Source: Prochlorococcus sp. AG-355-B18 (lineage in GTDB: Bacteria; Cyanobacteriota; Cyanobacteriia; PCC-6307; Cyanobiaceae). From it: a stretch of 64,000 nucleotides of DNA. A model generated the notes under the pieces. It had not been told where the DNA came from. It did not search any database and saw only the letters and a list, made by a program, of their open reading frames with translations. The DNA is taken from the NCBI GenBank assembly GCA_003280965.1, contig QCDI01000003.1, forward strand, positions 64,001-128,000, read 5' to 3'. This document shows positions 1 to 60,745 of the stretch, in pieces. The stretch's first letter is position 1, and every line of letters starts with the position of its first letter. Made by a program: the position numbers and the translations under genes.

Positions 1-785
1 AACTAACTACGAATGAAGAACAGTTTAAAAAGTTAGAGAAATTTGTTTATGAAAGTGGCAATCTAAACTTACAAATTCTAAAAAGAGACTCAATAATTAT
101 CAATAAAATAAATCAAGCATTCCAAACAAAAAATATAAAAGGTATGATTTCCTTCGATGATGGAAGAATAAATGCTAAATCGTTACTTAAGACATTAGAT
201 AAATATCTAAAATATAAAAAAATAAATTTTGTAAATGAAGAAATAATAAAAATCAGAAAAGCAAACAATCAATGGTTTTCTACAACAAAAAACAATGGAG
301 ATATCAAATCTGACATAGTTATTTTGTGTAATTCTCTGCAAGCGGTTGACTTAATAGATGGCCTATCTCACAACATCAAATTAAAACCTGTTTTAGGTCA
401 AGCTATAGAAGTTGGCATAAATGATGCAGAAGTCGATTTATTAACACTTCCAAAACAATTCAATATAAATGGCAAAAATATCATTCCAGTATCAAAAAAC
501 AAACTTATTATTGGTTCAACAGACGAATATAGTACAAAGCCAGAAAAAAATATTTTTGAGAAAATTACAAATTTTTTAGATAAACAACCAACTTGGCTTA
601 TCAACGGTCGAGTTACAAAAAAATGGTTTGGCGTAAGGTCTAGGCCTGAAGGTGAACCTTCACCAATAATAAAAAATCTAGAAGATGGACTGATTATATG
701 TACAGGTTTTTATAAAAATGGTATTCTACTCGCACCAGCTTGTTCTAAATGGGTTGCTAGGGAAATTAAAAAATACTTCTCCTAA
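1..785 (+). CDS. FAD-dependent oxidoreductase, glycine oxidase/D-amino acid oxidase-like (5' end outside window)
   Basis: C-terminal motifs GVRSRP and [14 protein letters not shown] of the DAO/ThiO family; the frame is open to the window edge. Confidence 0.75.
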
Positions 786-2689
786 TCTTTTGATTCAGTA
801 AAGTCTGCATCAATTACATCATCTCCACTTTTATCATTTGATTCAGTCTGATCAGGACCACTCGCTGAACCAGGTGTCGGAGGCTGGTTACCTGGTTGCT
901 GATAAACAGATGAACCGACTGCATATAGTTCTTGTTGAAGCTCTTCAAGGAGTTTTTTCATTGACTCATAGTCCTCTTTTGAGGTGGCCTCTTTTAAAGC
1001 ATTGCTTTTTTCTTCAACCTTAGACTTTGCTGCAGCTTCAATTTTATCTCCCAATTCACCAAGTTGCTTTTCTGTCTGATAGACAAGTGTTTCAGCTTGA
1101 TTCTTTAAATCAATTTTCTCTCTTTTTTCTTTATCTGCTGATGCATTTGATTCTGCATCTTTAACCATTTTTTCAACCTCATTATCGGATAAAGTAGAAG
1201 CACCAGTGATAGAAATACTTTGCTCTTTTCCACTACCTTTATCTTTAGCTGTAACACTAAGAATACCGTTTGCATCGATATCAAATGTCACTTCAATTTG
1301 GGGGACACCTCTTGGTGCTGATGGAATACCATCTAATCTAAAAGTTCCCAAACTTTTATTATCAGATGCCATTTCTCTTTCACCCTGTAATACATGTATT
1401 TCTACATTGGTTTGTCCGTCGACAGCAGTTGAATATGTCTCAGATTTCTTTGTAGGTACAGTAGTATTTCTATTTATCATTTTTGTCATAACCCCACCTA
1501 AAGTTTCTACACCTAAAGAAAGTGGAGTAACATCAAGCAACAATATATCTTTAACTTCACCAGCTAAAACTCCTCCCTGAATAGCTGCTCCAACAGCAAC
1601 AACTTCGTCAGGATTAACAGTTTGATTTGGTTCCTTGCCTATTATTTTTTTAACTAAATCTAAAACTGCAGGTATCCTGGATGAACCTCCTACCATAACA
1701 ACTTCATCAATTTCACTAGTAGAAATTTTGGCATCACTTATAGCTCTCTCAACTGGGGTTTTGCACCTATCAATTAAAGAGGCTGCTAATTCCTCAAATT
1801 TTGCTCTAGTTAAGTTCAAATCCAAATGTTTTGGACCTTCAGGAGTTGCCGTTATAAAGGGCAAATTTATTTCACTTTGAGTAGCATTTGAAAGCTCAAT
1901 TTTTGCTTTTTCTGCTGCTTCAGTAAGTCTTTGTAAAGCCTGTTTATCTTGTCTAAGGTCGATTCCCTCATTTGATTTAAAAGTACTTGCTAAATGATCT
2001 ACGATACACCTATCAAAATCGTCACCGCCTAAATGCGTATCTCCAGATGTAGATAGAACTTCAGTTACTCCGTCACCAGCTTCAATAACTGACACGTCGA
2101 ATGTTCCTCCACCTAAATCAAATACAAGAATTTTTTCATTTTCTTTATCCAAACCATATGCTAGAGCTGCAGCAGTTGGCTCATTGACAATTCTGAGAAC
2201 TTCTAAACCTGCAATCTTGCCTGCATCTTTTGTCGCTTGTCTCTGAGAGTCGTTAAAATAAGCTGGAACAGTAATTACAGCCTGTGTAACTTTTTCACCA
2301 AGGTATTTACCAGCGTCATCTGCTAACTTTCTTAAAACTTGAGAGCTAACCTCTTCAGGGGAAAACTGCTTATCCAAAATAGGACACTTTAATTTAACGC
2401 TAGAACCAGATTTTTCAACAGAATAACTAACTTCTTTAGATTCTTCATTTACTTCATCAACTCTTCTGCCAACAAAACGCTTTGCAGAATAAAAAGTGTT
2501 TTCAGGGTTCATAACAGCTTGTCTCTTTGCGATTTGGCCAACGAGCTGATCTTGATTTTTTGTATATGCAACAACTGATGGAGTAGTTCTGAAACCCTCA
2601 GCATTTGCTATTACAGTAGGTTTACCACCTTCCATAACAGCGACACAACTATTAGTTGTTCCTAAATCAATTCCTACAACCTTACCCAT
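782..2689 (-). CDS. dnaK: Chaperone DnaK (Hsp70, DnaK2 type)
   Basis: [27 protein letters not shown]; start set at MGKVVG (2689) rather than the ORF-track start. Confidence 0.98.
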
Positions 2690-2758
2690 GGGTAAATTCT
2701 CATATTTAATATTCTCCATAATCGGTCATCGGCGTCATTATTGTTACTCAAAGACGAG

Positions 2759-2773
2759 GTGTGGTTCCCGAAC
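2759..2773 (-). promoter_or_regulatory. K-box-like element upstream of dnaK
   Basis: Minus strand reads GTTCGGGAACCACAC about 70 bp upstream of dnaK; resembles the cyanobacterial K-box (GTTCGG-N4-CCNNAC) with a spacer 1 nt shorter. Confidence 0.45.
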
Positions 2774-2806
2774 AGATCGTTATTTTTTAAGAAAAAAATT
2801 CTAAAC

Positions 2807-3676
2807 ATGATTTCAAGTAAGACATCTTTTATTGCATTAATCGGCAATCCAGTAAGCCATTCCTTGTCACCGATTATGCAAAATGCTGCCCTTCAATATT
2901 TAGGCCTAGATTTAATTTATATCGCTATACCTTGCAAAGATGAAGATCTAGAATTAGTTCTGAATTCTTTGAAAACAATTAATTGCAAAGGTTTAAACAT
3001 TACAATTCCCTTTAAAGAAAAAGTATTTAACCTCTGTAGTGAAATTTCCCCTGTTGCAAGCAAACTGAAAGCAATTAATACCCTAAAATTAAATTCTGAA
3101 AAAGAATGGAGCGCAACTAACACAGATGTAGAAGGATTTATTTATCCTTTAAAAACATTAAACTTAATAAAAAAAGAATCTATTGTTCTTGGCTCCGGGG
3201 GTGCAGCACGATCTGTTATTCAGGGATTAATAAATCTTAATTTCTCAACTATTTCAGTAATATCAAGGAATAAATCATCACTAGATGAATTAATAAAAAA
3301 TTTTAGGAGTCAAATTGAAATTCAAGGTTTGCTGAATAATGATAATTGGGCTCAAAATTTAATTGAAGAAGCAGATTTAATTGTAAATACAACACCAGTA
3401 GGAATGAAAACAACAAAAAATGACGAAAATTTATTGCCATTTGGAGAGAATTTCTGGAGATCTCTTAACTCGAAATCAATTATTTACGATCTAATCTACA
3501 ATCCTGCTCCGACTTCTTTATTAAAATTTAGTGCCAAAAAAGGATGCATGACTATCGACGGTTTGCAAATGCTTATTGCTCAGGGATTGAAATCATTATC
3601 ATTTTGGACAGATGGTTTAGAAGTGCCTTTTCACATTATGGATGACGCACTCAAAAATTATCTTAAAAATAAATGA
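2807..3676 (+). CDS. aroE: Shikimate dehydrogenase
   Basis: [33 protein letters not shown] at 2807. Confidence 0.96.
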
Positions 3677-3725
3677 TGCTAATTTTCAGGGAATTTGCAC
3701 ATCATGTTGTATCGTTAAAGATGAA

Positions 3726-3768
3726 CAGACGCTCATCGCATTAATTTATGAGCCAAAGACCTTGTCTG
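3726..3768 (+). promoter_or_regulatory. Structured rpsF 5' leader (candidate S6:S18-type autoregulatory RNA)
   Basis: CAGAC-GCTCAT...ATGAGC-CAAAGACCTT-GTCTG nested stems ending 5 nt before the rpsF ATG. Confidence 0.35.
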
Positions 3769-3773
3769 AAACT

Positions 3774-4232
3774 ATGAACGAACAATCTTATTACGAAACC
3801 ATGTACATCCTCCGTCCAGATATTGCGGAAGATGAAGTAACTAGCCACATTGATAAATACAATAAGCTTTTAAAAGATTTTGGCGGTACTATCCTCGATA
3901 GTCAAATGAGGGGTAAAAGAAGATTAGCTTATCAAATAGCAAAACATAGAGAAGGTATTTACGTCCAACTAAGTCATCAAGGTGATGGACAACATATTTT
4001 CAAAATTGAAAAAGCAATGAGACTGAGTGAAGATGTTATAAGATATATGACCGTTAAACAAGAAGGACCGTTGCCAACTCCAAGACCCTCTACTAAGAAT
4101 TCAACTCAAGTAGATGATAAAGAGAATTCAGAACCTAAAGTTGAATCTAAGGAAAAACAACCAGTAATTAGCGCAGATACTTCAACTTCGAAAAAAGATG
4201 ATTCTGAAACCAAAGACAATGCAGAGTCTTAA
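3774..4232 (+). CDS. rpsF: 30S ribosomal protein S6 with charged C-terminal extension
   Basis: [29 protein letters not shown] at 3774. Confidence 0.96.
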
Positions 4233-4235
4233 GTA

Positions 4236-5450
4236 TTAATCTTTTGTTTTTGAATTTAATTCAGCCCATATTTTATTAGACATACCCCACATATAGATAA
4301 AACCCTTTGCTAAAGAGTGATTAAATACATCATCTTGACTATAAGTTGCCAAATCTTCTCTATAAAGTGAATTGTTTTCCGACATTCTTCCAACTACAAT
4401 TGCGTTCCCCTTATGAAGTCTAATCTTTACTCTTCCATTAACTGAAGTTTGAGTCGATGAAATGAAAGCATCTAAACTATCTTTTAGAGGTCCGAACCAA
4501 AACCCCTGATAAACCAATTGACTCCATTTTTTTTCCACCCTTCCTTTAAAGTCAATAACATCTGGGTTTAAAGTTATACTTTCTAATTCCTTGTGAGCTT
4601 TGATTAGAAGTAAAAGTCCAGGTGTTTCGTAAATCTCTCTGCTTTTGATCCCTACAACTCGATCTTCAATCATATCTATTCTTCCAAAACCATGTTCACC
4701 TGCAAGATCATTAGCTTTTTGAATAATCTCCACTGGAGTTAACATTTCATTATTAATTCCAACTGGCAGCCCATTTTTAAAAACAATTTCAATATCTTGA
4801 GGAACATCAGGTGAATTATCAATTGATGATGTTATTGCAAAAATATTTTCAGGTGCCTCATGCATTGGGTCCTCTAATATACCCGCTTCAATACTCCTAC
4901 CTAGAAGGTTAACATCTATTGAATATGGTGATTTTTTTGATACTGGTGCAGGAATACCAAATTTTTCTCCATACAATATTGCCTCTTCCCTGCTCATATT
5001 CCACTCTCTTGCAGGAGTAATAATTTTCAAATCAGGACCTAAAGCATTAATTGCTAAATCAAAGCGAACTTGATCATTTCCTTTACCGGTGCATCCATGT
5101 GCTACTGCATCGGCATTTATCTCTCTCGCAGTATTAACAAGATTTTCAGCAATTAAAGGCCGAGCAAGAGCCGTAGATAATGGATATTTATCTAAATATA
5201 ATGCATTTGCTCTAATAGCTGGAAAAGCATATTTCTCGACAAAACTATCAACTAAATTACCAACGATTGATTTAGATGCACCAGAATTTAAAGCTTTTTG
5301 TCTAACAAGTTCTAAATCTTCACCTTGTCCAAGATCTGCCACAAAAGTAACCACTTCTGAAATACCATATTCATTCTTTAAATATGGAATACAAACGCTC
5401 GTATCAACGCCACCAGAATAAGCTAGTACAACTTTTTTTACCTGCTGCAT
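4236..5450 (-). CDS. argG: Argininosuccinate synthase
   Basis: [34 protein letters not shown]. Confidence 0.97.
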
Positions 5451-5483
5451 TTCAATTTGTTCCATAAATTTTTTTTAACGTGA

Positions 5484-5678
5484 TTAAGAATTTGATAACT
5501 TATTAAAAACTAATATCATTGTAACTAAAAGAGCTGGACCAAAAACTAGTAATACGAGAAGAAAGTTATTAATTATTAAAACATTGGGATTCAAGTATCC
5601 GCCAAGCTTAAATAATCCAGACAACAACAATGAGATTAGCCAGATTAAAAAATATTTTAAATTTCCTTTATCAAACAA
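5484..5678 (-). CDS. Small hypothetical membrane protein
   Basis: 64-aa ORF with two hydrophobic segments, fills the intergenic gap. Confidence 0.55.
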   Translation of the reverse strand: MFDKGNLKYFLIWLISLLLSGLFKLGGYLNPNVLIINNFLLVLLVFGPALLVTMILVFNKLSNS

Positions 5679-5730
5679 AGTTTTTCATGCGCATTATTAT
5701 GTATTATCTTATATATAGAACATAAACTAA

Positions 5731-6009
5731 ATGGACTCAAATAAATTAAAACTTAGATTAGACGATATTTCTGAAGTTAACCCTGCTTTAACTTGCTACC
5801 ACAGAGATGATCAGGCTCCTGTTTTGCCACTAAGAGATGAGCCAGATTTACTATCTTGGCTTGAAAATACAGGTAGACTTGTTACTGAAAGCGAGGGAGA
5901 TTCACAAGAGATTAGTACAATTGAAGAAGAAGAACTATCAGCGCTAATGGGAGAAAAAGAAGATTACAAGACTGAAGAAGACCCTTCAGATGATGATTGG
6001 GAAGATTAA
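5731..6009 (+). CDS. Conserved cyanobacterial acidic protein (DUF3134-like)
   Basis: NPAL...PVLPL..EPDLLSWLENTGRL motif, directly upstream of mraY. Confidence 0.75.
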   Translation: MDSNKLKLRLDDISEVNPALTCYHRDDQAPVLPLRDEPDLLSWLENTGRLVTESEGDSQEISTIEEEELSALMGEKEDYKTEEDPSDDDWED

Positions 6010-7325: not shown

Positions 7326-8668
7326 TTATTTGAACTTGAAAATTCTTTTAACAGAATTGATAAATAGTTATGTACATGAGTGTCCCAACTAAAGTGCCTA
7401 TTAACACCCTCAATTCCATTTCTACTCCATAATTTCCACTGATCATTATTGGAAATTCCTTTCTCAAGAATAACTTTTAGCTTATTAATATCAGTAACAT
7501 CTACTAAAAGTCCGTTTTCACATTTTGAGCAAATTTCTTTTGGTCCCCCATCATTTGTTGATATTATAGGCAATCCACATGAGGAAGCTTCAAGAAGAGT
7601 TAAACCAAAAGGCTCTGTTAAAGCTGGATTTACGAAAACACCCCCTCTGCTAGCAGCCCACCTATATAAAGCAGGAATTTGACTTGGAAGATGCTTTTTC
7701 GGATAAGCTACCTTCCCGTACAAATTATATTTATCAATCATTTCAAAAATATTATGGAATACGTCTTTTTGTTGAGGGTCAAGTTTTGAAGTACTATCTC
7801 GACAACCTAAAATCAAAATTAAATTAGTTTTTCTTTTTAATTTTTCAGATCTTCCGTATGCCTCAATCAAAGAAGGAATATTTTTTCTTCGAACAGCCCT
7901 AGAAATAGCCAATAATGGAGGTTTAGCAGAATCCTTGAGAAAAGGTTTCATCATATTGTCAATTTCAGCAGTTTCTGTTGTCGAGTGAATATGGTGAAAC
8001 TTGTTATGATCAACACCAGGTGGAATGACTTTTGCTTTTTGAGTTATAAAAGAAGTATATTGAGAATATTGATAAACTGATTCTTGTTTAGTGCTTGTAA
8101 CAACAATATCTGCCGACTTTAAAGCTTTTTCTTCTGCCTCAATTCTTTTACTTATAGAATAAAGCTTTTCTATTTGATTAGTTTTTAAACCAGTATCGAG
8201 CAATTTCCTCTGTTTTTCTCTTCCTAAGGAATGGCCAGTAAAAATAAGTGGAACATTTAAGGATTTACTTAGTTGGACACCTACATATCCAGCATCTGCA
8301 TAATGAGCATGAATAAAATGAGGTTTTTTATTTTTTTTATAAAAACAGATAAGACTTTCAGTTAAATGATCTAAATAGGGCCAAAGCAATTCCTTTCTTA
8401 AGTATTTATTAGGTCCAAATTTAAATCTTAAAATTCTAACTCCAGGTTCTACAAATTCTTCTTCTTGTGCATAGTCATTATCTACTTTAGTGTCGTTGAT
8501 TAAACGAGTGACTAGATCTACTTGGTCAACTTCTGAAGTATTAGCCAAACTTTTAACTAACTCTAAAACATATTGAGTTTGACCTCCTGTATCTGCATCC
8601 CTTCCTAATTCAAGGTTTTTAGAACGTATAAGACCATGTAAATGTAAATGTAAAAATTTAAGCCTCAT
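7259..8668 (-). CDS. sps: Sucrose-phosphate synthase, glycosyltransferase domain only
   Basis: HGLIR, ELGRDADTGGQ, HAHYADAG, FTGHSLG, NPALTEPFGLTLLEA. Confidence 0.92.
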   Translation of the reverse strand: MRLKFLHLHLHGLIRSKNLELGRDADTGGQTQYVLELVKSLANTSEVDQVDLVTRLINDTKVDNDYAQEEEFVEPGVRILRFKFGPNKYLRKELLWPYLDHLTESLICFYKKNKKPHFIHAHYADAGYVGVQLSKSLNVPLIFTGHSLGREKQRKLLDTGLKTNQIEKLYSISKRIEAEEKALKSADIVVTSTKQESVYQYSQYTSFITQKAKVIPPGVDHNKFHHIHSTTETAEIDNMMKPFLKDSAKPPLLAISRAVRRKNIPSLIEAYGRSEKLKRKTNLILILGCRDSTSKLDPQQKDVFHNIFEMIDKYNLYGKVAYPKKHLPSQIPALYRWAASRGGVFVNPALTEPFGLTLLEASSCGLPIISTNDGGPKEICSKCENGLLVDVTDINKLKVILEKGISNNDQWKLWSRNGIEGVNRHFSWDTHVHNYLSILLKEFSSSNNYSSSDIKQSCLKGSSSLIKPH

Positions 8669-8870
8669 TCAGCTAATCCTCCGTTCAAGAGCCTTTAATA
8701 CAAATAAGCTGGATTTCTACAGGAAATATTAAGAAACCATTATGATTTTAAATTTTTTAAATTCCAAAATTTTTTAAAAAAGCATATGTGGACTTAAGTT
8801 ATGCCTTTCTAAAGATGAATTTCGTTTAGCTCAGATAATTTAAAATACAAAGAAATACAACAAAGATTTC

Positions 8871-11774
8871 TTATTTGAGAACTTTTTTAAGATATTTTGC
8901 TGTATGGCTTGTAGGGTGTTTTGCTACATCTTCAGGAATTCCTTCTGCAATAATTTCGCCGCCTTTATCTCCTCCGTCAGGTCCTAAATCTATGATCCAA
9001 TCAGAGCATCTAATTACGTCTAAGTTATGTTCGATAACAACTACAGAATTCCCTTTATCTACCAAACGTTGTATAACATCCATTAGTTTATGAACATCAT
9101 AAAAACTGAGACCTGTAGTTGGTTCATCAATCAAATATAAAGTTTTTCCAGTAGCTCTTTTAGATAATTCTGTAGCTAACTTAACTCTTTGAGCCTCTCC
9201 ACCAGATAGAGTAGGAGCAGGTTGGCCTAATTTGACATATCCTAAGCCAACATCTACTAGTGTAGATAATCTATCAGCAGCTTGAGGTATAGCAGAAAAG
9301 GTTTCTGCAGCTTGTTCAACAGTCATTTCCAAAACATCAGATATATTAAAACCTTTGTATTTAACTTGAAGAGTTTCCCTGTTAAAGCGAGCTCCTTTGC
9401 ATACTTCACATTGAACATAAACATCAGGTAAAAAATTCATTTCTATGACATTAACTCCCTGGCCTTTACAAGCTTCGCATCTTCCTCCTTTAACATTAAA
9501 ACTAAACTGACCAGCCTGGTAACCCCTTGCTTTTGCTTCCACAGTGGCAGTAAATATTTGCCTTATAGGATCAAAAGCACCTGTATAAGTAGCAGGATTA
9601 GATCTTGGTGTTCTCCCTATTGGAGATTGATCAATAACGATAACTTTATCTATTGCCTTGATACCTTTTAACTCTTTTACTCCTTGAGGAAAAGGAACTT
9701 TTAATCCTAGAGAATGACACAAAGCAGGGTGTAGCAATTCATTTATCAAAGTACTTTTCCCACTGCCGCTTACTCCAGTTACGGAGACTAATCTTCCTAA
9801 TGGAAATTCTACAGATATATTCTTTAAATTATTTTTTGAGCAATTATTTAAAATTAAACTTTTTTTAACTGATGATCTACGTTCTTTTGGAGTAGGAATC
9901 GACTTCCTACCACTGAGATAAGCCCCAGTTAATGACCTCTCTGATTTTAAGACATCTTGATATGATCCCTTAGCAATAATTTCCCCACCGTAAACACCTG
10001 CACCTGGACCAATATCTACTAGATAATCTGCAGATTTCATAGTATCTTCATCATGTTCAACAACAACTAAAGTATTACCAAGGTCTCTCAAGCTTTTTAA
10101 GGTTTCTAATAATCTGTCATTATCTCTCTGATGTAAACCAATACTGGGTTCATCTAATACATATAGAACACCAGTAAGGCCTGCGCCTATTTGCGTAGCC
10201 AATCTAATACGCTGAGCTTCTCCACCAGACAAAGTCATAGCTGGTCTATCTAAAGTTAAATAATCTAGACCAACATTAATTAAAAACTTTAAACGTAAAC
10301 GAATCTCTTTTAAAACCAATTCACCTATCTGCTTTTGTTTTTCTGATAAAGATATATTTTCCTTTTTAGTCTTACCTAATCCCATGATGCGCTCAATATG
10401 AGTTAAGGTTTCAGAAACGCTTATAGAAGTTAAATCAGTAATATTGTATGGACCAATTCTAACTGCCAACGCCTCTGGTCTTAATCTTTTTCCAGAACAT
10501 GTCTTACAAGGAACTAACTCTTGGTACTTTTCTAATTTTTGTTTAACTAATTCTCCATTAGCTTCATTCAATTGCCTTTCTAATATTGGTAAAATTCCTT
10601 CAAAGGGTCTTTCAAAACCACTAGAAGTTTTAAAACGACTATCAGCTTGAATTAATATTGGTTTATCTGATCCTAAAAGTAGAACTTTTTTTTGCAAATC
10701 ACTTAAATCTTTCCAAGGAGTTTTTAACTCAAAACCATAAGCTTGTCCTACAGAATAAAGTAAAGAAAAGTAATAAGTATTATCTTTTTCGCTCCAAGGC
10801 GCTATTGCAGCATAAACCGGTAATGTTTTATCTGGGATAACTCTATCCGCAGTAAATTTTTTTAAATAACCAATTCCATGACAGTCTGGACAAGCTCCAT
10901 ATGGACTATTAAAGGAAAATAATCGTGGAGACAGTTCATCTACAATTGAACCATGAACAGGACATGCATAATTTTCTGAGTAAAGTTTTTCTCTCTCTAG
11001 GTTAGGAGGTAAAGTTTCTCCTTTTTTTGGAACAACCTCTACTACTGCTAAACCATCGCCTCTTTTAAGGCAAGTTTGTAGAGAGTCATTTAATCTTTCT
11101 TGTATTCCTTCTCTTGCAATTAATCTATCAACTACTACCTCAATAGTATGAATTTGATTTTTATCTAATTCAATACTATCAGCAAGTTCTCTTACCTCGC
11201 CATTGATTCTTACTCTAGCGAATCCCTCGGCAGCTAATCCACTTATTAATTTTGTGTGTGTTCCCTTCTTCCCTCTTACAACAGGAGCCAACAACTGATA
11301 CCTTGTTCCTTCTGGCAATAGAAGAATTTGGTCAACCATTTCATCAATTGTTTGAGGCGCAATTGGAATCCCACAGTGATGACAATGTGGTTCACCAGCA
11401 CGACCAAACAATAATCTTAAATAATCTTGTATCTCTGTTACGGTTCCAACTGTTGATCGAGGATTATGACTTGTAGATTTTTGATCAATTGAAATAGCTG
11501 GTGATAAACCCTCAATATTGTCAACATCAGGTTTATCTACTTGACCCAAAAATTGTCTAGCATATGCCGAAAGACTCTCAACATATCTTCTTTGACCTTC
11601 AGCAAAAATTGTATCAAAAGCTAAAGAACTTTTTCCGCTTCCACTAACACCTGTAAAAACTATAAATTTATTCCTAGGTAAAGAGAGGTCAATATTTTTT
11701 AAATTATGCTGACGAGCTCCTCTAATATTAATTGAATTATCTTCTTCAAAAGTATTATTAATCTTTTTAACCAT
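8871..11774 (-). CDS. uvrA: Excinuclease ABC subunit A
   Basis: Two ABC domains (GVSGSGKS, LSGGEAQR) and zinc fingers. Confidence 0.98.
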   Translation of the reverse strand: MVKKINNTFEEDNSINIRGARQHNLKNIDLSLPRNKFIVFTGVSGSGKSSLAFDTIFAEGQRRYVESLSAYARQFLGQVDKPDVDNIEGLSPAISIDQKSTSHNPRSTVGTVTEIQDYLRLLFGRAGEPHCHHCGIPIAPQTIDEMVDQILLLPEGTRYQLLAPVVRGKKGTHTKLISGLAAEGFARVRINGEVRELADSIELDKNQIHTIEVVVDRLIAREGIQERLNDSLQTCLKRGDGLAVVEVVPKKGETLPPNLEREKLYSENYACPVHGSIVDELSPRLFSFNSPYGACPDCHGIGYLKKFTADRVIPDKTLPVYAAIAPWSEKDNTYYFSLLYSVGQAYGFELKTPWKDLSDLQKKVLLLGSDKPILIQADSRFKTSSGFERPFEGILPILERQLNEANGELVKQKLEKYQELVPCKTCSGKRLRPEALAVRIGPYNITDLTSISVSETLTHIERIMGLGKTKKENISLSEKQKQIGELVLKEIRLRLKFLINVGLDYLTLDRPAMTLSGGEAQRIRLATQIGAGLTGVLYVLDEPSIGLHQRDNDRLLETLKSLRDLGNTLVVVEHDEDTMKSADYLVDIGPGAGVYGGEIIAKGSYQDVLKSERSLTGAYLSGRKSIPTPKERRSSVKKSLILNNCSKNNLKNISVEFPLGRLVSVTGVSGSGKSTLINELLHPALCHSLGLKVPFPQGVKELKGIKAIDKVIVIDQSPIGRTPRSNPATYTGAFDPIRQIFTATVEAKARGYQAGQFSFNVKGGRCEACKGQGVNVIEMNFLPDVYVQCEVCKGARFNRETLQVKYKGFNISDVLEMTVEQAAETFSAIPQAADRLSTLVDVGLGYVKLGQPAPTLSGGEAQRVKLATELSKRATGKTLYLIDEPTTGLSFYDVHKLMDVIQRLVDKGNSVVVIEHNLDVIRCSDWIIDLGPDGGDKGGEIIAEGIPEDVAKHPTSHTAKYLKKVLK

Positions 11775-51912: not shown

Positions 51913-53499
51913 ATGAGTCAAACATCTTTAAAAAAAGAACGAGATCCCTCAATATTAATTTTAGATTTTGGATCTCAATATTCTGAATTGATTGCAAGAA
52001 GAATAAGAGAAACTAATGTTTTTTCTCTTGTAGTAAGTAACTGTATTTCAATTGAGGACATTCTTAAAATTAATCCTAAAGGGATAATTTTAAGTGGGGG
52101 CCCAAATTCTGTATATGACCAAAATTCTCCTAAATGCGATGAAAAAATTTTTGATTTAGGAATTCCTATTCTTGGTATATGCTACGGAATGCAATTAATG
52201 GTTAAAGAACTTGGAGGCTCTGTCTCTTCAGCCACAAAAAAAGCTGAATATGGGAGGGCACCAATAAATATAGATTCAGAGTGTGACCTATTCTGCGATG
52301 TAGAAGATAAATCAATAATGTGGATGAGTCATGGTGATTCAATTAATTGTTTGCCGGATGGATTTAATAAAATTGCTCATACAGAGAACACACTCCATGC
52401 TGCGATTGCAAATGATAGAAAAAAATTATTTGGCGTACAATTTCATCCTGAAGTTATTCATTCAGAGTATGGGATGACGGTAATTAAAAATTTTGTTTAT
52501 AAAATCTCAACTTGTGTTGCTGATTGGACAACAGAAACCTTTTTAGAAGAAACAATTCCCAGGATAAAAGAACAAGTTGGCAATAAGAAAGTTTTGCTTG
52601 CCTTGTCAGGCGGAGTTGATTCTTCAACTCTTGCTTTTTTACTTAATGAAGCAGTTGGAAATCAGCTTACATGCATGTTTATTGACCAAGGCTTCATGAG
52701 AAAAGGTGAACCAGAATTTTTGATGAACTTTTTTGACAAGAAGTTTCATATAAAGGTTGAATATATTAATGCTAGGGAAAGGTTTATTGCCAAATTAAGG
52801 GGGATTACTGATCCAGAACAGAAAAGGAAAATTATTGGTGAAGAATTTATAAGAGTATTTGAAGAAGAAAGTAATAGATTAGGACCTTTTCATTACCTAG
52901 CGCAAGGCACTCTTTATCCTGATGTTATTGAAAGTGCTGGTACTAATATTGATCCCAAAACGGGAGAAAGAATAGCTGTAAAAATAAAGAGTCATCATAA
53001 TGTGGGGGGATTACCAAAAGATTTGCAATTTAAATTAGTTGAGCCATTAAGAAAACTTTTTAAGGACGAAGTCCGAAAATTAGGAGCTGCATTAGGTTTG
53101 CCAGATGAAATTATAAAAAGACATCCATTCCCAGGACCAGGGTTAGCGATAAGAATTTTGGGAGAAGTGACTAATGAAAAACTCGATTGTTTAAGAGATG
53201 CAGATTTGATTGTGAGAGAGGAAATAAAAAAAGCTGGTCTTTATGATGATATTTGGCAAGCATTTGCAGTTTTGCTACCGGTTAAAACTGTAGGAGTTAT
53301 GGGTGATAAAAGAACTTATTCATGGCCAATTGTTTTACGTTGTGTATCTAGTGAAGATGGTATGACAGCAGATTGGTCAAAAATTCCCTTTCAGGTTTTG
53401 GAGAGAATTTCAAATAGAATAGTAAATGAAGTAATTTTAGTAAATAGAGTTGTTTTTGATATTACAAGCAAACCTCCTGGAACTATTGAGTGGGAGTAA
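51913..53499 (+). CDS. guaA: GMP synthase (glutamine-hydrolysing)
   Basis: [37 protein letters not shown]. Confidence 0.98.
53482..53499 (+). repeat. attL core: 18-bp direct repeat formed by the guaA 3' end
   Basis: ACTATTGAGTGGGAGTAA, identical to 59942-59959. Confidence 0.93.
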
Positions 53500-53535
53500 A
53501 AAAATTAGCTAAAACCTTGTTATAGTCTAAAAAAA

Positions 53536-53559
53536 TAGGTTTCACGTAGGTTTCACGTG
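53536..53559 (+). repeat. Left subterminal repeat pair 1
   Basis: TAGGTTTCACG-TAGGTTTCACG-TG. Confidence 0.92.
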
Positions 53560-53596
53560 GAATATTGGTAACCTATTTGCAACGCTTTTTGATGGC

Positions 53597-53620
53597 TAGG
53601 TTTCACGTAGGTTTCACGTG
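53597..53620 (+). repeat. Left subterminal repeat pair 2
   Basis: Exact 24-bp copy of 53536-53559, 61 bp downstream. Confidence 0.92.
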
Positions 53621-53766
53621 ACGCTATAAGCACTTCTCTACAGAGAAATCAAGGAATGAATTTTTCTCTACACTTTTATTTCTCTGAAAGTACCGAAATA
53701 TAATGTAAAAAAAACTTCTTTATTAGTAATATAGTTTCTAAAGACGGTACATAGCCAATTTTACCG

Positions 53767-56256
53767 ATGCTCGATAAAGAATGTATTAGGTCAATAAAGC
53801 GTTTTCAAGATCCTTTTATTCGTAGTTTCATTTTTGATTCGAATTCTTGGTATGAGTTTGCAAGTAAAGTCAATCAACTTGGTAATGGAAGAGAACAAAA
53901 TAAAACAAAAGGAGATATCTTTGAATTATTTACTTGTTTATATCTTGCATCAGATCCAATTTTTTCATCCAAACTGGAAAGTATTTGGCATCATTCAAAT
54001 GTTCCATATCCCATAGTTGAAAAACTTGATTTACAACTTCCTGAAATTGGAATTGATTTAATTACAAAATCAAAAGATGGAGATATTTGGGCGTTTCAAT
54101 GTAAATATCATTCTGATATTAGTAAAAATGTTTCATACGAGGAGGTCTCCACTTTTTTCTCAATTACAAATAGACCTCAAACATTTAATAATATTACTCA
54201 TAGGATAATTTGTTCTTCAACATACGAGGTTAGTAAAAAAATAAGAAATGCTGAAAAAAATAAACTAGGTTATTTAACTTTTTGTGAATTTAGTCAACTT
54301 GGTAAAGAAGAGTTCTATGGTTTTCATTCCCTTTTGAAAAATGAAAAGATTAGTCTTGAGAGTTATGAACCAAGAAATCATCAGATAAATGCTATTGAAA
54401 AATCAATAAGATATTTTTCTACTGAATCAAGGGGTAAATTAGTTCATCCTTGTGGTGCTGGCAAAAGTTTAACTGGGTACTGGATATTTCGACATTTAAG
54501 CGTAAATAACACATTGATTGTTGTTCCTAGTCTTCAATTAGTCAGACAGACTCTAAAAGCATGGGCAAGAGAATTATTGTGTGATGGTGTAGAAATCGAT
54601 TGGATAGCGATATGTAGCGACGACGATGTTAGAAATGTAGATGATCCGGCGATGAATATTTCAGATATAGGAATTGAAGTTAATACAGATGTAGAGGTTA
54701 TAAGTAAATTTTTAACAAAAAAAACTAATAATAAAAAAATCGTAATTACCACATATCAAAGTGGAAAAGCGTTAATCAATGCAGCACAATTCACTAATTT
54801 CAATTTTGAACTAGGAATTTTTGATGAAGCTCATAAAACTGCAGGAAATAAAAATAAGCTCTTTGCTCAACTTCTTTATGATGAAAATATTTTTATAAAG
54901 AAAAGATTATTTATGACAGCTACTGAGAGGGTATTTAGAGGTGATTCAGATGAAACTATATCTATGGATGATGAAGTTATTTATGGAAGAATAGTTGATG
55001 AATTTTCTTTTAAATCTGCTCTAGAGCAGAAACCAAAAATTCTTTCTGATTATCAAATATCAACGACAGCTACATTTAAAAATGAAATTAAAGAATTGAT
55101 AGAAAATAATGAACTTCTGAAAGCAGGAAATAAACAATGGACATTTGAGGCAGATGCATCAACTTTTGCAGCTTTAATTACATTAAGAAAAGCAGTTCAG
55201 GAATTAAAAGTAAAACATGTAATTTCATTTCATCGAAGTATTTCAAGAGCTAGAGAATTTCAACAATTAAATGATGCAGTCAATAATTTTGGTACTAAAT
55301 TTGGGTATATTCATTCTTATCATATTAATGGAAAAAAAGGCACAGGAAAAAGGTCTGAAATAATTAATAGATTTATTTCTGAAGAACCAAGTTTAATTAC
55401 TAATGCTCGATGTTTGACGGAAGGAGTTGATATTCCTGAAGTCGATGCAGTTCTTTTTGCTGATCCAAAGGATAGTACAGTTGATATTGTACAGGCGGCA
55501 GGAAGAGCAATGAGAGTAAGTGATAATAAGGAATTAGGTTATATTCTTTTACCTGTGATGCTTGATGAAGAAGAAAATAATTCAATCGAGGATAGTGCCT
55601 TTAAACAAATTATTAAGGTGGTTTCAGCTTTAGGTATGAGCGATGAAAGGATTGTTGCAGAATTTCAAGAAATTGCTCAAGGTAATAATCCAACAGGGAG
55701 AAGAATTGTTGATATTGAGGAAGTTTTTAGTTCAATAAATTTAGAAAGCTTGTATTCGAATATAAACTTTAGAATTTGGAACAGATTGAGTTTCGCATCG
55801 AAATTTATAAATTTAAATCAAGAGATATTAATTGCTGAAATAGGAAAATCTGGTGATAGATGGAAGCAAGCTAATTTTCCACTCAAAATATGGGAAAATT
55901 ACTTTGGAGGAGATTTAAAACTTGAGAAATATATCCACTTGTATGAAGTCAATAGAAACGGTTCTCTCAACAAAAAAGTCAGTACAAAGATAGTAAAGGT
56001 TAAAAGTCAAAACTATAGAGTTGAATTAGGAGCAGTTGCAGGAATTAATTATCCTGATTCAGGTAGACCTATAGGTATCTTTAAAAAAATTTCCCAAAGT
56101 GAATTTAGATATCATATATTTATGCCAGACGATCCCATGCATCCAAATTTACTTGGTTATTTAAATATTAGGGGTAAAGGTTATGCGACATCTCTTAAAG
56201 GAGCTTTAGTTTTTTTAAATCAACTTGAATCACTTTGGCCAGATTGTCCTGTTTAG
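53767..56256 (+). CDS. Mrr-like PD-(D/E)XK nuclease-SF2 helicase fusion (Type ISP-like motor) with an uncharacterised C-terminal domain
   Basis: KGDIFE, GIDL...FQCKY nuclease; PRNHQ, PCGAGKS, DEAH, MTATER, CLTEGVDIP, DIVQAAGRAMR helicase motifs; no MTase motifs. Confidence 0.85.
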   Translation: MLDKECIRSIKRFQDPFIRSFIFDSNSWYEFASKVNQLGNGREQNKTKGDIFELFTCLYLASDPIFSSKLESIWHHSNVPYPIVEKLDLQLPEIGIDLITKSKDGDIWAFQCKYHSDISKNVSYEEVSTFFSITNRPQTFNNITHRIICSSTYEVSKKIRNAEKNKLGYLTFCEFSQLGKEEFYGFHSLLKNEKISLESYEPRNHQINAIEKSIRYFSTESRGKLVHPCGAGKSLTGYWIFRHLSVNNTLIVVPSLQLVRQTLKAWARELLCDGVEIDWIAICSDDDVRNVDDPAMNISDIGIEVNTDVEVISKFLTKKTNNKKIVITTYQSGKALINAAQFTNFNFELGIFDEAHKTAGNKNKLFAQLLYDENIFIKKRLFMTATERVFRGDSDETISMDDEVIYGRIVDEFSFKSALEQKPKILSDYQISTTATFKNEIKELIENNELLKAGNKQWTFEADASTFAALITLRKAVQELKVKHVISFHRSISRAREFQQLNDAVNNFGTKFGYIHSYHINGKKGTGKRSEIINRFISEEPSLITNARCLTEGVDIPEVDAVLFADPKDSTVDIVQAAGRAMRVSDNKELGYILLPVMLDEEENNSIEDSAFKQIIKVVSALGMSDERIVAEFQEIAQGNNPTGRRIVDIEEVFSSINLESLYSNINFRIWNRLSFASKFINLNQEILIAEIGKSGDRWKQANFPLKIWENYFGGDLKLEKYIHLYEVNRNGSLNKKVSTKIVKVKSQNYRVELGAVAGINYPDSGRPIGIFKKISQSEFRYHIFMPDDPMHPNLLGYLNIRGKGYATSLKGALVFLNQLESLWPDCPV

Positions 56257-56257
56257 G

Positions 56258-57622
56258 TTATCTACAAATAAAAAGATATTCTGAATCAAACGATATTTCT
56301 TTATTGAGAGCAGTGCGGTTAAGTTTACTATGAGAAAATTTCCCCACGGAATCTATGTCGACTTTTGAAAAAAAATTTAAAGCAATCTCTCTGATTTGAT
56401 CAATCGTCATAACTCTTGGATGTGCATTTTTCTCTGATGCATATGGTGAGTAAGAGAGGACAAGAGGTAACTTTTTTTCAGATATTTTCGAAAATAGTAA
56501 TTGGAATGCTTTTGGAGCTTGATTGCGAATACAAAAAGGTGATTGATGACGATTCTTTCTATATATCCCACGACTAAGCATGGTTTCCCCATGTGCTTTG
56601 TTTGATGAAATTTCTGGATCATCTCTCAAAGATAGAGTTTCAAGAACATGATAAAAACGACTGTAATGATCTCTTGTGTATGGAGGATCTGCGTAAATAA
56701 TGCTTTCATTGCACTCTTTAGATGAAAGGTAATCTAAGTAATCAGATCTAATTGCTTCGTGATTAAAATTTGCTGAATAATTTAAGCAAAATTTTTCAAG
56801 TGAATATAAAAAAATCTTAGTTATTGATTTATTTCTATCTTTTGATGTTTGATTGTATAAAGACTTTTTCACTTTACCTTCTTTATCACGAGGTCTTAAG
56901 GGTTGGGCAAAGTGTTTGCCGACAGTATTAACGACTTCACTTGCAGTTGCTAAAATAGCAGCAGTGAATAAATCTTTTTCTAATCCTATATAGTTTTCAG
57001 CCATATCTAATAAAGCATCAATTTCTGCAGCTTGTTTGAAAGAGAAATAAATACCACCAAAATGTCTTAATGTCATCGTAGATAAATAATTTTCTTTAGG
57101 AAATTTTTCAATTTGTTTCCAACAATTATTCATTGCTATTTGAAAATCATTTTTAATATCGTTTTTTGCGGTCATTAATGATCCGCTTTCAATCATCATT
57201 GCAAGTTGTTCTGTATCCCCATTTTTAGCCTGACTCATCAAATTTTCCTCAATTTCAATTAATGGTTCAGCTACGATTAATGATTTATGCTTATGGATAT
57301 TTTTAAGTTGATTTTCTAACTTATTTTTATTTTTTTTTATAAAAATTTTGTTATCACTTAGTAGTGCTGTGCACAATATGCGAGAGTATTCTTGGATATC
57401 AATAGCAGTTACTTTGCGCGTTTTTCCTAGCCAAGAGGAGACAGTACCTGATCCAGCAAACAAATCACATACAGGGGCATCTTTAGAGGTAATTTGATTT
57501 AAGTTAGATTCTATTTTTTCTAAAATTCTTAATTTACTTCCAAGATAATGAATAGGTCGCCATGGCTCTTGATCCTGAATTAATTTTGTTTTCCCTTTAT
57601 TAGATAAATGTTTATATGACAC
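56258..57622 (-). CDS. Alpha-class (D12-like) DNA adenine methyltransferase
   Basis: IHYLGSK, DLFAGSGTV (motif I) before IYADPPY (motif IV), YSRFYHVLETL; GTG start. Confidence 0.88.
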   Translation of the reverse strand: MSYKHLSNKGKTKLIQDQEPWRPIHYLGSKLRILEKIESNLNQITSKDAPVCDLFAGSGTVSSWLGKTRKVTAIDIQEYSRILCTALLSDNKIFIKKNKNKLENQLKNIHKHKSLIVAEPLIEIEENLMSQAKNGDTEQLAMMIESGSLMTAKNDIKNDFQIAMNNCWKQIEKFPKENYLSTMTLRHFGGIYFSFKQAAEIDALLDMAENYIGLEKDLFTAAILATASEVVNTVGKHFAQPLRPRDKEGKVKKSLYNQTSKDRNKSITKIFLYSLEKFCLNYSANFNHEAIRSDYLDYLSSKECNESIIYADPPYTRDHYSRFYHVLETLSLRDDPEISSNKAHGETMLSRGIYRKNRHQSPFCIRNQAPKAFQLLFSKISEKKLPLVLSYSPYASEKNAHPRVMTIDQIREIALNFFSKVDIDSVGKFSHSKLNRTALNKEISFDSEYLFICR

Positions 57623-57666
57623 TATTTTTTACTTTCCCAAAGTTAATGTTGCCCAATTTTAATACC

Positions 57667-57713
57667 TAATTAATATTCTTATATTAATTACTTTTTTAAA
57701 TAAATTAAAAAAG
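57667..57713. promoter_or_regulatory. Two adjacent perfect inverted repeats in the divergent MTase promoter region
   Basis: TAATTAATAT-tctt-ATATTAATTA (57667-57690) and CTTTTTTAA-ataaa-TTAAAAAAG (57691-57713). Confidence 0.4.
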
Positions 57714-57739
57714 ATTTATAAACTAAAAATATCTTTCAA

Positions 57740-58873
57740 GTGCACGATCCCATACAACAATTAGGTTTAATAAATCATGAGAAATATTCTCTGAAAGAGA
57801 ACGATAAATTATTTTTAGGGGAAGGTAGTCAATTATCTGCTCTAATACATGGAGATAATGATGCAGTAATTGATATAGCTAGTGAATATTTGAAAAATCA
57901 AGTTAGGTGCATTTATATTGATCCACCTTATAACAACCTTGAAGTTTATGAACATTATGAAGATCGCGATTCATATGCTGTGTGGATTAAAAAGTTGACT
58001 AATCATATTGCCCGACTTTATAAGTTATTACGTGATGACGGCAGTCTTTGGATATCTATAGATGATCGACAAATGCACTATCTCAAAGTAGCTATGGATG
58101 AGATTTTTGGTAGAAATAATTTCATTTCAACTATAGTTTGGGAGCATAGAAAAACAAGAGAAAATAGAAAGGTTTTTTCAAATAATCATGAATATATTCT
58201 TGTATACGCAAAGGATGCTGAAATTTTTAAAAAGTGTATGAATAAACTTCCTTATAATGATGAGATAAAAAAAAGATTTAAAAATCCTGATAATGATTAT
58301 CGCGGTCCATGGCAGTCAATATCTTTAAATGTACAGGCAGGACATGCTACAAAAAGTCAGTTTTATGATCTTATTGCACCAAATAGCAATATTCATAAAC
58401 CTCCCGCTGGTAGATGTTGGGTTTATTCAAAACTCAAAATTCAAAAATTAATTAGTGATAATCGCATTTGGTTTGGGCAAGATGGTAATGGAGTTCCGAG
58501 ATTAAAGAGATTCCTCAACGAAATAGATACATCCTTAACTCCGCATACTTTATGGAGAGCTGATGAAGTGGGAACTACTGAAAATGCAAAGAAAGAAATA
58601 TTAAAATTGTTTCCAGAAGAGCCGGTATTCGATACACCGAAACCTTTTCAATTGATTGATAAAATTCTCAAAATTGCTGCTAATCCTGGTGATCTAATCT
58701 TAGATAGTTTTTTAGGTTCTGGAACAACTTCCTCAGTTGCGATTCAAAATAGAATGAGATTTGTTGGAATTGAGAGAGGAAACCATATATATTCTCACTG
58801 TCATAAACGTCTTAAGCAAATTTTAAAAGAATATGATGCGCAAGTAAAATTCTTCGAACTTGTAGAAGAATAA
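57740..58873 (+). CDS. Beta-class N6/N4 DNA methyltransferase, Type III Mod-like but short
   Basis: IYIDPPYN (motif IV) before TPKP and DSFLGSGTT (motif I); FKNPDNDYRGPW segment; GTG start. Confidence 0.88.
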   Translation: MHDPIQQLGLINHEKYSLKENDKLFLGEGSQLSALIHGDNDAVIDIASEYLKNQVRCIYIDPPYNNLEVYEHYEDRDSYAVWIKKLTNHIARLYKLLRDDGSLWISIDDRQMHYLKVAMDEIFGRNNFISTIVWEHRKTRENRKVFSNNHEYILVYAKDAEIFKKCMNKLPYNDEIKKRFKNPDNDYRGPWQSISLNVQAGHATKSQFYDLIAPNSNIHKPPAGRCWVYSKLKIQKLISDNRIWFGQDGNGVPRLKRFLNEIDTSLTPHTLWRADEVGTTENAKKEILKLFPEEPVFDTPKPFQLIDKILKIAANPGDLILDSFLGSGTTSSVAIQNRMRFVGIERGNHIYSHCHKRLKQILKEYDAQVKFFELVEE

Positions 58874-58874
58874 A

Positions 58875-59426
58875 TTATTCCCAGCCATAAGGAAAGAACT
58901 TTCTACATCCACCCGAATCAACAAAGAATCCTTCTGTAGCATCTATAATAGTTTTCATTTCTTTTGATAATTTTTGTCTTCCAAATTCACTATCTTTAGT
59001 AAAAGGAATCGAATAATAATAACCTTGTGAAAGTGATGGCATTAATGCTCTTAATTTGCCAGATTTCCTATCTTTTTTTGAAGTTGCTCTCCCTAATTGA
59101 TTCCCCACAAAATTCATAAAAGGTCCTGTCCTTATCTCCTTTGTATTTTTTGTTCTTTCCTGATAGGTTTTTTCTTCGTTTAACAATTCAGGTGAATATG
59201 ATCTTGCGGTGTAATACTGACCACCATATCCATTCCAGATACCTACATAGAAACCTAAAGAAGGTTGATTTTTATAATTTAGAGATCCTATACCACCACC
59301 GGAACCAGTATATTTCAAAGTTATAGTTACATCTGGTTCTACTTCACTTGTAAGTGTGCAAATTGAGTCTGCTTTAACTAAAGGAATAACACCTAATAAA
59401 AGTGGCAAAAGTAGTAAGAGTTTCAT
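58875..59426 (-). CDS. Hypothetical secreted protein
   Basis: Signal peptide MKLLLLLPLLLGVIPLVKA; two Cys. Confidence 0.75.
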   Translation of the reverse strand: MKLLLLLPLLLGVIPLVKADSICTLTSEVEPDVTITLKYTGSGGGIGSLNYKNQPSLGFYVGIWNGYGGQYYTARSYSPELLNEEKTYQERTKNTKEIRTGPFMNFVGNQLGRATSKKDRKSGKLRALMPSLSQGYYYSIPFTKDSEFGRQKLSKEMKTIIDATEGFFVDSGGCRKFFPYGWE

Positions 59427-59785
59427 TACCTACGACGACCTAAATCAATTAACTTAGTTGTTCTTTTGCAAATATCAACTTCTATCCATTCCATATTTGC
59501 AGTATGAGTTGGCATATCCTCTTTTGACGCAACTGTATATTTACACTCATTGAAGATATCTGTTTGATAAACCCAATACCAAGGATATTTGTAATGAGTA
59601 TTACGTTCAATCCTTTTTGTAAGCATTTCCCAATAGGTGTCATTAACTAATTTAATTGCTGCTCTTTCGCCTTCAGTACATTCACCTTGCGATTCTGGGC
59701 AGGTATATTTGTGCCTTTTATATTGTTCTGTATTAGCAGGAGTACTAAAACCAAATATCAAAAACAGAAGAAATAGTTTTTTCAA
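59426..59785 (-). CDS. Hypothetical secreted Cys-containing protein
   Basis: TTG start, signal peptide MKKLFLLFLIFGFSTPANT, four Cys; TAATG coupling to the next gene. Confidence 0.7.
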   Translation of the reverse strand: MKKLFLLFLIFGFSTPANTEQYKRHKYTCPESQGECTEGERAAIKLVNDTYWEMLTKRIERNTHYKYPWYWVYQTDIFNECKYTVASKEDMPTHTANMEWIEVDICKRTTKLIDLGRRR

Positions 59786-59847
59786 AATTATTTTTTATAT
59801 TAATTTTAATTATCCTGTCAATATGACAAATATTACTCCTCAAACTA

Positions 59848-59872
59848 TAGGTTTCACGTGGGTTTCACGTAG
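59848..59872 (+). repeat. Right subterminal repeat pair
   Basis: TAGGTTTCACG-TGGGTTTCACG-TAG, same orientation as the left pairs. Confidence 0.92.
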
Positions 59873-59881
59873 AAAAATTTG

Positions 59882-59890
59882 TGTTATAAT
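59882..59890 (+). promoter_or_regulatory. Extended -10 promoter element pointing across attR
   Basis: TGTTATAAT equals the TGnTATAAT consensus. Confidence 0.45.
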
Positions 59891-59941
59891 CAGGTCAAAC
59901 CCATTGATATAACTGTCTTTTTTATTCACCTCTTTGGAGGG

Positions 59942-59959
59942 ACTATTGAGTGGGAGTAA
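59942..59959 (+). repeat. attR core: duplicate of the guaA 3' end
   Basis: ACTATTGAGTGGGAGTAA; extends to 21 bp with one mismatch (GGG vs GGA). Confidence 0.93.
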
Positions 59960-60031: not shown

Positions 60032-60745
60032 ATGAGCGAGATTATTAAACTAAGTCGATCTACTGTTGAGAAATATCTTAGTTGTCCAAGATGTTGTGTA
60101 CTTGATAAAAAATATCAAATAAAACCGCCCTCATTACCATTTACTTTAAATATAGCTGTCGATAATTTATGTAAAAATGAATTTGATCACTACAGAAGAA
60201 TTCAGGAGCCACATCCATTATTTATTGAACATGGCATTGATGCAGTTCCTTTTAAACACAAAAATTTAGAACGTTGGAGAAGTAATTTTCAAGGAATAAG
60301 ATATAAGTCAATTGAACATAATTATGATTTTGGTGGAGCTGTGGATGATATTTGGCAGAAAAAAAATGGTGATCTTATCATTATTGATGTAAAAGCAACA
60401 TCTAGAAATAATTTTGATTGGTCTGAGACTTTTAATAAGTACGAATATGCAAAAGCTTATAAGAGACAATTAGAAATGTATCAGTGGTTATTTAAAAAGA
60501 ACGGATTTAAAGTTGCCAAAGAAGCTTATCTCTTATACTTTAATGGAAAAAAAAATGAAGAGGTTTTTAATAATCAATTAAATTTTGATGTACATTTAAT
60601 TAGATTAGATTGTTCTACATCATGGGTAGAAAATAAGATAATTGATACGGTCAAATTATTGCGTTCTGATATTTTTCCCAAACCGTCATTAAATTGCGAA
60701 TACTGCAATTATTTAAAAAAACGTTGGAAATTATCAATAACTTAA
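60032..60745 (+). CDS. PD-(D/E)XK superfamily nuclease (RecB/Cas4-like) with terminal CxxC pairs
   Basis: LSRS...CPRC, GAVDDI, IIDVKAT, QLEMY, CEYC. Confidence 0.82.
   Translation: MSEIIKLSRSTVEKYLSCPRCCVLDKKYQIKPPSLPFTLNIAVDNLCKNEFDHYRRIQEPHPLFIEHGIDAVPFKHKNLERWRSNFQGIRYKSIEHNYDFGGAVDDIWQKKNGDLIIIDVKATSRNNFDWSETFNKYEYAKAYKRQLEMYQWLFKKNGFKVAKEAYLLYFNGKKNEEVFNNQLNFDVHLIRLDCSTSWVENKIIDTVKLLRSDIFPKPSLNCEYCNYLKKRWKLSIT

Follow-up and report, generated by a model that had tools for sequence, protein, structure and literature searches.

An integrase-less cassette with arm-like end repeats at the 3′ end of guaA in Prochlorococcus sp. AG-355-B18, probably movable by visiting integrase-bearing elements

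Integrase-less elements were described as cis-mobilizable elements (CIMEs) in the ICESt1/ICESt3 family of ICEs (integrative and conjugative elements), where they exemplify the cis route of mobilization after tandem accretion (PMC5704250). At guaA, the GIsul2 integrase likewise mobilizes CR2-sul2, a sub-unit that is flanked by att sites and has no integrase of its own (PMC9376610), and ICERspD18B is another guaA-associated island (PMC7775301); guaA islands, treated by Song et al. 2012 (as cited there), are described as often P4-type with AlpA, and proteobacterial (PMC9376610, PMC7775301). Tycheposons combine a tyrosine integrase, replication genes, a small serine recombinase and cargo, target seven tRNA/tmRNA genes, and occur in tandem copies with the newest element adjoining the target gene (Hackl et al., bioRxiv 10.1101/2020.12.28.424599). 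In lambda and KplE1, the core is flanked on either side by direct repeats, which the N-terminal domain of the integrase reads (PMC2951348). The subject of the present analysis is an integrase-less island, a 6.5-kb block in the last codons of the purine-synthesis gene guaA of Prochlorococcus sp. AG-355-B18. The analyzed stretch, referred to as the window, comprises 64,000 nt of contig QCDI01000003.1 (positions 64,001–128,000) of the 1.58-Mb genome, and all coordinates are window positions.

The cassette lies between two guaA ends, and with a probability of roughly 0.7 its likely arm repeats let a visiting integrase-bearing element of the same arm specificity, hereafter the helper, excise and move it. 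The end repeats agree with the repeats of rare elements that occupy this site in relatives and bear an integrase, which would enable such visitors to cut out and move the cassette. The duplication of the core, the arm-like repeats, the empty sites, the stacking of cassettes, the helpers with the same ends and the lack of a resident helper were observed; mobilization we infer, since no excised circle was seen.

By analogy, the cassette appears to behave as CIMEs do, at an integration site of known kind, and a family of tycheposon-like guaA elements, previously unlinked, would serve it. Like a CIME, it carries no integration or transfer genes, and retains attL and attR (exact cores and arm-like repeats); as with CIMEs, a single site also holds tandem stacks of related elements. 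In contrast to CIMEs, the helper is a small non-conjugative replicating element and not an ICE, integrase-less cassettes far outnumber helpers (an integrase is encoded in 4 of 73 filled loci), and there are several arm types, matching within each cassette. The target, the GAGTGGGA core and the duplicated-core insertion in the guaA 3′ end are those of guaA-associated islands, whereas an own integrase is found in the helpers and not in the cassette. Judged against the descriptions of GIsul2 and ICERspD18B, the helpers have a distinct 457-aa integrase family, whose searched members lie in this cyanobacterial family and in metagenomes. The helper has the tycheposon layout, with integrase and replication module present in L060, L070 and L117 (L numbers denote loci). 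Unlike tycheposons, the cassette lacks both modules, the integrase being the marker by which tycheposons were found, and the target is guaA instead of a tRNA/tmRNA gene. The main text of Hackl et al., its supplements set aside, contains no mention of guaA, GMP synthase or arms. No resident IntI stands beside the array as in integrons; guaA precedes it, no integrase is nearby, and the cassettes are bounded by direct core copies. As strictly defined, both tycheposons and P4-type guaA islands exclude the cassette. No guaA island was found described for Prochlorococcus or Synechococcus in the literature covered, which did not extend to subscription papers, bioRxiv supplements and the published Cell version of the tycheposon paper.

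The island is delimited by the following features:

51913..53499, plus strand: guaA (GMP synthase), an intact 528-aa open reading frame (ORF) with Pfam GATase and GMP_synt_C domains, ending in TIEWE*.
53482..53499, plus strand: left core (attL), the last 18 bases of guaA, including the GAGTGGGA consensus of guaA islands (taken from PMC9376610 and PMC7775301).
59942..59959, plus strand: right core (attR), with downstream bases resembling those 3′ of guaA at empty sites.

The two cores are exact 18-bp copies spaced by 6,460 bp, and when the match was extended three bases leftward, 20 of 21 positions were identical. No third copy was found in the genome with up to three mismatches allowed. The original prediction of a duplicated guaA end at this spacing, an intact guaA, and five internal ORFs free of recombinases was borne out: neither Pfam nor NCBIfam gave a tyrosine- or serine-recombinase match for the five ORFs, and tblastn of five helper-element backbone proteins against the island returned nothing. 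Its placement of the site about 36 kb from oriC agrees with dnaN, which starts at 17453, 36.0 kb ahead of the core, oriC being located immediately before dnaN in this genus.

An 11-bp repeat, overlooked in the original prediction, occurs inside the island ends in three tandem pairs, two at the left end and one at the right, all in one orientation. These are the only such pairs in the genome.

53537..53558, plus strand: tandem 11-bp repeat pair at a distance of 55 bp from the start of the core; likely arm sites of an integrase, with motif and spacing as beside the integrases of L101, L117 and L190.
53598..53619, plus strand: second tandem 11-bp pair, which follows the first by 61 bp; also likely arm sites.
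59849..59870, plus strand: right tandem 11-bp pair, 93 bp before the right core, oriented as at the left end.
53634..53671, no strand: conserved palindrome (TCTCTAYAGAGAA type) with a further half-site; putative accessory-protein or regulator site.
59880..59890, plus strand: extended −10-like sequence facing the right core; candidate promoter, conserved by eye in most aligned right ends and missed by the sigma-70 scan.

All six repeats are at most one base off the consensus, and in end alignments the spacers between them drift. In relatives, the repeats stand at fixed distances of about +55, +116 and −72, −84, −93, −105. The motif varies among cassettes, yet the two ends of one cassette agree: of 40 cassettes scored, which include kin and hence are not independent, 33 had left and right repeats agreeing at ≥10 of 11 bases, while shuffling expects 10.6 (maximum 19 in 2,000). 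When repeats were compared across a core, one of seven comparisons agreed at this level. Short direct repeats that flank the core on either side at fixed spacing are a feature shared with lambda-type arm sites, and the tandem repeats are, to judge from sequence, likely arm-type binding sites of a guaA-specific tyrosine integrase, whose N-terminal domain would be the predicted reader. They differ from lambda-type arm sites in that all have one orientation and form perfect tandem pairs. The palindrome was near-invariant in 13 aligned left ends (three of them integrase-bearing) and present in 47 of 74 scored left ends. Sigma-70 and terminator scans gave results at chance level.

The guaA region was fetched from most core-matching genomes (122 of 157 matched) and from some picked for arms; because it was drawn in this way, the locus sample is not random. 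Among 120 genomes of the genus, 31 have the repeat pattern, while 80 other genomes yielded none. At the 108 loci with both flanks, 35 sites were empty and 73 (about two thirds) filled, most with 1–5 core-bounded units, and in the four that encode an integrase it always lay within the unit adjoining guaA. An empty-site joint was also seen in metagenome run X1. Cargo at guaA in relatives included restriction systems, TPR enzymes, mreB/murA copies and metabolic genes. The guaA site is a general cargo hotspot in which defence genes are one class among several. The empty sites and alternative cargo that the original prediction led one to seek in relatives were found, so its refuting condition, the same genes and duplicate in all relatives, did not hold; its small defence hotspot is qualified by the breadth of the cargo classes.

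The inserts include core-arm-core scars of ~140 bp, which look as though the cargo lying between the left and right repeats had been deleted; they were noted at L090, L048, L052, L212, L217 and L242, and a scar-like joint for window positions 53502–59850 appeared in runs X1, X2, X7 and X13. The arm motif of the window also bounds a 7-kb cassette with additional copies of mreB and of a murA-like gene and with an RHH regulator, 95–99% identical in five genomes (oriented loci L042:2548–9474, L046, L050, L066 and L043), as well as a cassette with an OTCase-like, asparagine-synthase-like and M20 peptidase cluster (L053, oriented 159–5818, and L178). A stand-alone DnaB C-terminal domain was present in cassettes of L041, L056, L038 and L071.

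60032..60745, plus strand: host PD-(D/E)XK nuclease gene, a flank and not cargo.

This Cas4-like gene is the conserved gene behind the guaA site and was also found at empty sites, where it lies 48–81 bp behind guaA.

The helper encodes a 457-aa lambda-like tyrosine integrase on tycheposon-like elements, with lengths of 450–490 aa in the four filled loci. Searches recovered this integrase family from 5 genomes of the genus (285 searched) and from 11 of the family (401 searched), altogether 15 distinct genomes, of which 14 have the gene directly behind guaA. Complete helper elements measure 6.5–8.6 kb and add a Rep-like gene; most also encode a primase-helicase and a small serine recombinase. 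Each carries its own repeat motif. The motif of the window, TTTCACGT, adjoins the integrase in L101, L103, L117, L164, L190 and L193, i.e., in two genomes of other genera and four metagenome contigs, and in the left-end alignment helpers and the window cassette have a common core, arm spacing and palindrome.

The sole Pfam match of the helper integrase was PF00589. Its structure model (predicted local distance difference test 85.8) has three domains, including an N-terminal domain of three strands plus a helix. The model aligned to full-length lambda Int, arm-binding part included (residues 8–432 to 7–356, Z 18.2, root-mean-square deviation (rmsd) 7.1), and the predicted sheet-plus-helix domain falls within this full-length alignment, as would be expected of an N-terminal arm-binding domain. 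Across 15 sequences, position 49 (L117 numbering) is Gln in all integrases with TTTCAC or TCTCAC arms and Tyr/Phe in the others, making it a candidate specificity residue.

No member of the helper family was found in the genome of the window. Its four other tyrosine integrases were considered and rejected as helpers, as none has the motif nearby and the helper integrase is only weakly similar to them. A phage helper was rejected as well: the arm pattern gave three unrelated matches in viral contigs, and integrase searches of viral contigs and annotated phages gave no family member. The helper, a tycheposon-like element, is cellular, and the phage collections yielded none. Of the search for integrases beside the same core that the original prediction proposed, the parts directed at this genome and at viral contigs came out negative, and integrase-bearing guaA elements were found in other genomes. 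Elsewhere, at G000:C4:4589–7000 (L001), a different tyrosine integrase lies upstream of psaA, accompanied by a resolvase and by 12-bp tandem repeats of its own (6754 and 6973), with no tRNA nearby.

In the proposed mechanism, the cassette would derive from a helper through loss of the integrase, replication and resolvase genes, with ~200 bp of the left and ~100 bp of the right end kept. It would be passively inherited until a helper arrives at guaA and supplies integrase in trans to the cassette's own ends; alternatively, the helper would excise the cassette jointly with itself in cis. Mobilization could occur in trans or equally in cis through a tandem helper, and helper-plus-cassette tandems do occur (L060, L070, L170). 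Near-identical integrase-less cassettes were observed at different array positions in divergent hosts: L065 and L176 are 98.5% identical in the cassette versus 89.1% in the guaA flank, and L045 and L062 97.4% versus 79.3% in the right flank. The earlier suggestion of a non-autonomous cassette, or of an element that lost its integrase, fits, because integrase-bearing elements with the same ends exist at the same site elsewhere and not in this genome. L142 (whole) and L164 contain two 99.9%-identical 8.1-kb helper copies in tandem followed by a related third unit, either a concatemer or a tandem array. As candidate circles, L142 with these copies and L101, L123 and L145 with right end-core-left end junctions were set aside, being indistinguishable from chromosomal tandems.

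Several results weigh against helper-driven mobility. The circular junction that the original prediction proposed to look for, joining the right end of the cassette to its left end, was absent among the joints listed in eight of 24 metagenome runs, contigs being a form in which rare variants drop out. Within the genus, no integrase with the exact arm motif of the window was found, its five carriers having other motifs, and the integrase tree does not resolve the TTTCACGT group as a single clade. Plain inheritance fits, or a flank to compare is missing, in 11 of 14 shared-cassette rows, and arrays could spread by homologous recombination via guaA as well. In the arm scoring, 63 of 103 intervals were omitted, 54 of them without a clear tandem at both ends (partly false internal cores) and nine mini-cassettes. 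A rival reading is a dead remnant, delivered once by an autonomous element, deprived of its integrase and immobile, its ends being decaying scars and any spread being due to homologous recombination via guaA and the adjoining flank gene. We regard this as unlikely. The missing helper, with just five carriers in the genus, the missing circle, the many arrays with degenerate cores and arms and 140-bp scars, and the host-like GC (30–33%) and third-position GC (GC3; 16–23%) of the cargo are all compatible with it; yet the six repeats have stayed close to consensus despite drifting spacers, identical cassettes sit at different array positions in divergent hosts, and new cargo has been joined to the same ends at fixed points.

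It is considerably less probable that the repeats are operators, or sites for an excisionase, a repressor or a host bending protein, so that the core alone drives mobility and any guaA integrase serves. Repeats at both ends, in one orientation and at fixed distances, with a motif that changes along with the integrase, argue against this, as does the predicted arm-binding-like N-terminal domain of the integrase model, although the left pairs sit where the helper integrase promoter would be, comparable to the att/promoter overlap in KplE1 (PMC2951348). An assembly artefact or chance duplication is nearly refuted. No metagenome contig examined spans the whole island, and the left-junction contig holds just 29 bases of the guaA side; against this, the computed chance expectation of the core duplication is ~6e-5 per genome, equal architecture was found in many independent genomes, and the island interior was recovered as ~99%-identical contigs in 8 of 8 metagenome runs examined (seven studies). 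The artefact by which the original prediction was to be overturned is contradicted by these contigs and genomes. Mobilization by visiting helpers remains the reading that we prefer.

The cargo of the cassette consists of five genes:

53767..56256, plus strand: 829-aa likely restriction enzyme, with an Mrr-like nuclease (62–166), an SF2 helicase (200–584) and a B3-fold recognition domain (680–829).
56258..57622, minus strand: 454-aa D12-class adenine methyltransferase with FAGSG and DPPY motifs, 39% identical to an Acinetobacter plasmid gene of the same layout.
57740..58873, plus strand: 377-aa N6/N4 methyltransferase (Mod-like), divergent from the first, 50% identical over 332 aa to the Acinetobacter plasmid partner.
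58875..59426, minus strand: 183-aa protein of no known family with a hydrophobic N-terminus; shared right-end module.
59426..59785, minus strand: 119-aa protein with a hydrophobic N-terminus; shared module, weak DUF6678 match below cut-off.

Judging from its sequence, the cargo is likely a restriction system of two methyltransferases and a rare fusion protein in which a nuclease-helicase is joined to a BfiI-like recognition domain. The domains of the 829-aa protein were assigned by Pfam, and its Walker A, DEAH and motif VI are intact. The model of its C-terminal domain matched the BfiI recognition domain (3zi5) with Z 12.7 and rmsd 3.2 over 140 aligned residues, and the next rows were also B3 domains. 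The Acinetobacter plasmid locus has the same three-gene layout, with divergent methyltransferases and a convergent nuclease, the latter corresponding to the 829-aa protein only in its last 140 residues (43%). The recognition domain occurs mostly on 350–440-aa proteins, many with a phospholipase D (PLD) match (70 short matches). Word-based searches, the basis for calling the fusion rare, placed it on two long clusters only, both of them this fusion and one with its first 349 residues swapped. As in BfiI/NgoFVII-like PLD restriction systems, a B3-fold recognition domain is accompanied by two separate methyltransferases, whereas the PLD nuclease of BfiI-like Type IIS enzymes is replaced by an Mrr_cat_2 nuclease and a helicase. 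Type ISP enzymes combine nuclease, helicase, methyltransferase and recognition in one chain. The Mrr nuclease and SF2 motor in front resemble them (PADLOC N-terminal match), while a fused methyltransferase is lacking and the match to the 1,600-aa profiles spans only residues 35–638. In L038 and L041 (oriented 7894–11193), other guaA cassettes encode HA-repeat Mrr-helicase proteins that share 33% identity with residues 1–636 of the 829-aa protein and represent a possible donor family of the fusion.

The 829-aa protein would bind an asymmetric site via the B3 domain and cleave foreign DNA in an ATP-assisted manner, the two methyltransferases would mark the two strands of this site, and the cargo would pay its way as an anti-virus restriction-modification system. 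Relatives of the restriction genes were absent at E 1e-40 from 400 other cyanobacterial genomes, and a scan of genome contigs with the 829-aa protein gave one weak match only. In the metagenome runs examined, contigs of the restriction genes reached 4.1 kb at ~99% identity, and 49 listed variants, a subset of all, comprised 31 synonymous and 18 non-synonymous changes and no stops, with 20% synonymous expected. Because of these contigs and the synonymous bias without stops, the system is likely real and working. Read depth over the restriction genes was ~1/1000 of the guaA depth, which suggests that the cassette is rare, depth giving no share of cells.

The two small genes and the right end (58874–59941) are 85–91% identical in the cassettes L037, L041 and L073, which have other front genes; identity breaks at the stop of the second methyltransferase, and contig depth rises at the same point. 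The 183-aa protein had no match in Pfam, NCBIfam, PADLOC or PHROGs and only unnamed clusters in the Atlas; the 119-aa protein was left unexplained by Pfam, PHROGs and the Atlas.

A broader reading, to which we give somewhat less than even odds, is that guaA in picocyanobacteria is an addressed cassette library: hundreds of integrase-less cassettes would be bar-coded by arm motif and moved type by type by rare replicating helpers with diverged arm specificity, with cargo swapped at fixed joints behind constant ends. This tentative reading includes the chimeric cargo as a new restriction subtype (Mrr nuclease, SF2 motor and BfiI-like recognition domain with two free methyltransferases). The cargo offers a domain-swapped candidate restriction enzyme open to testing, and if helpers move the cassettes, the matched integrase and arm-motif pairs are a ready natural series for the evolution of arm specificity. 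Integrase-based surveys of Prochlorococcus assigned 3.6% of island DNA to active elements and put most of the remainder down to imprecise excision (bioRxiv 10.1101/2020.12.28.424599). The guaA site is a non-tRNA hotspot where most inserts are precisely bounded, intact-ended, integrase-less units, and if helpers do move such cassettes, part of the unexplained island material would be mobile in its own right.

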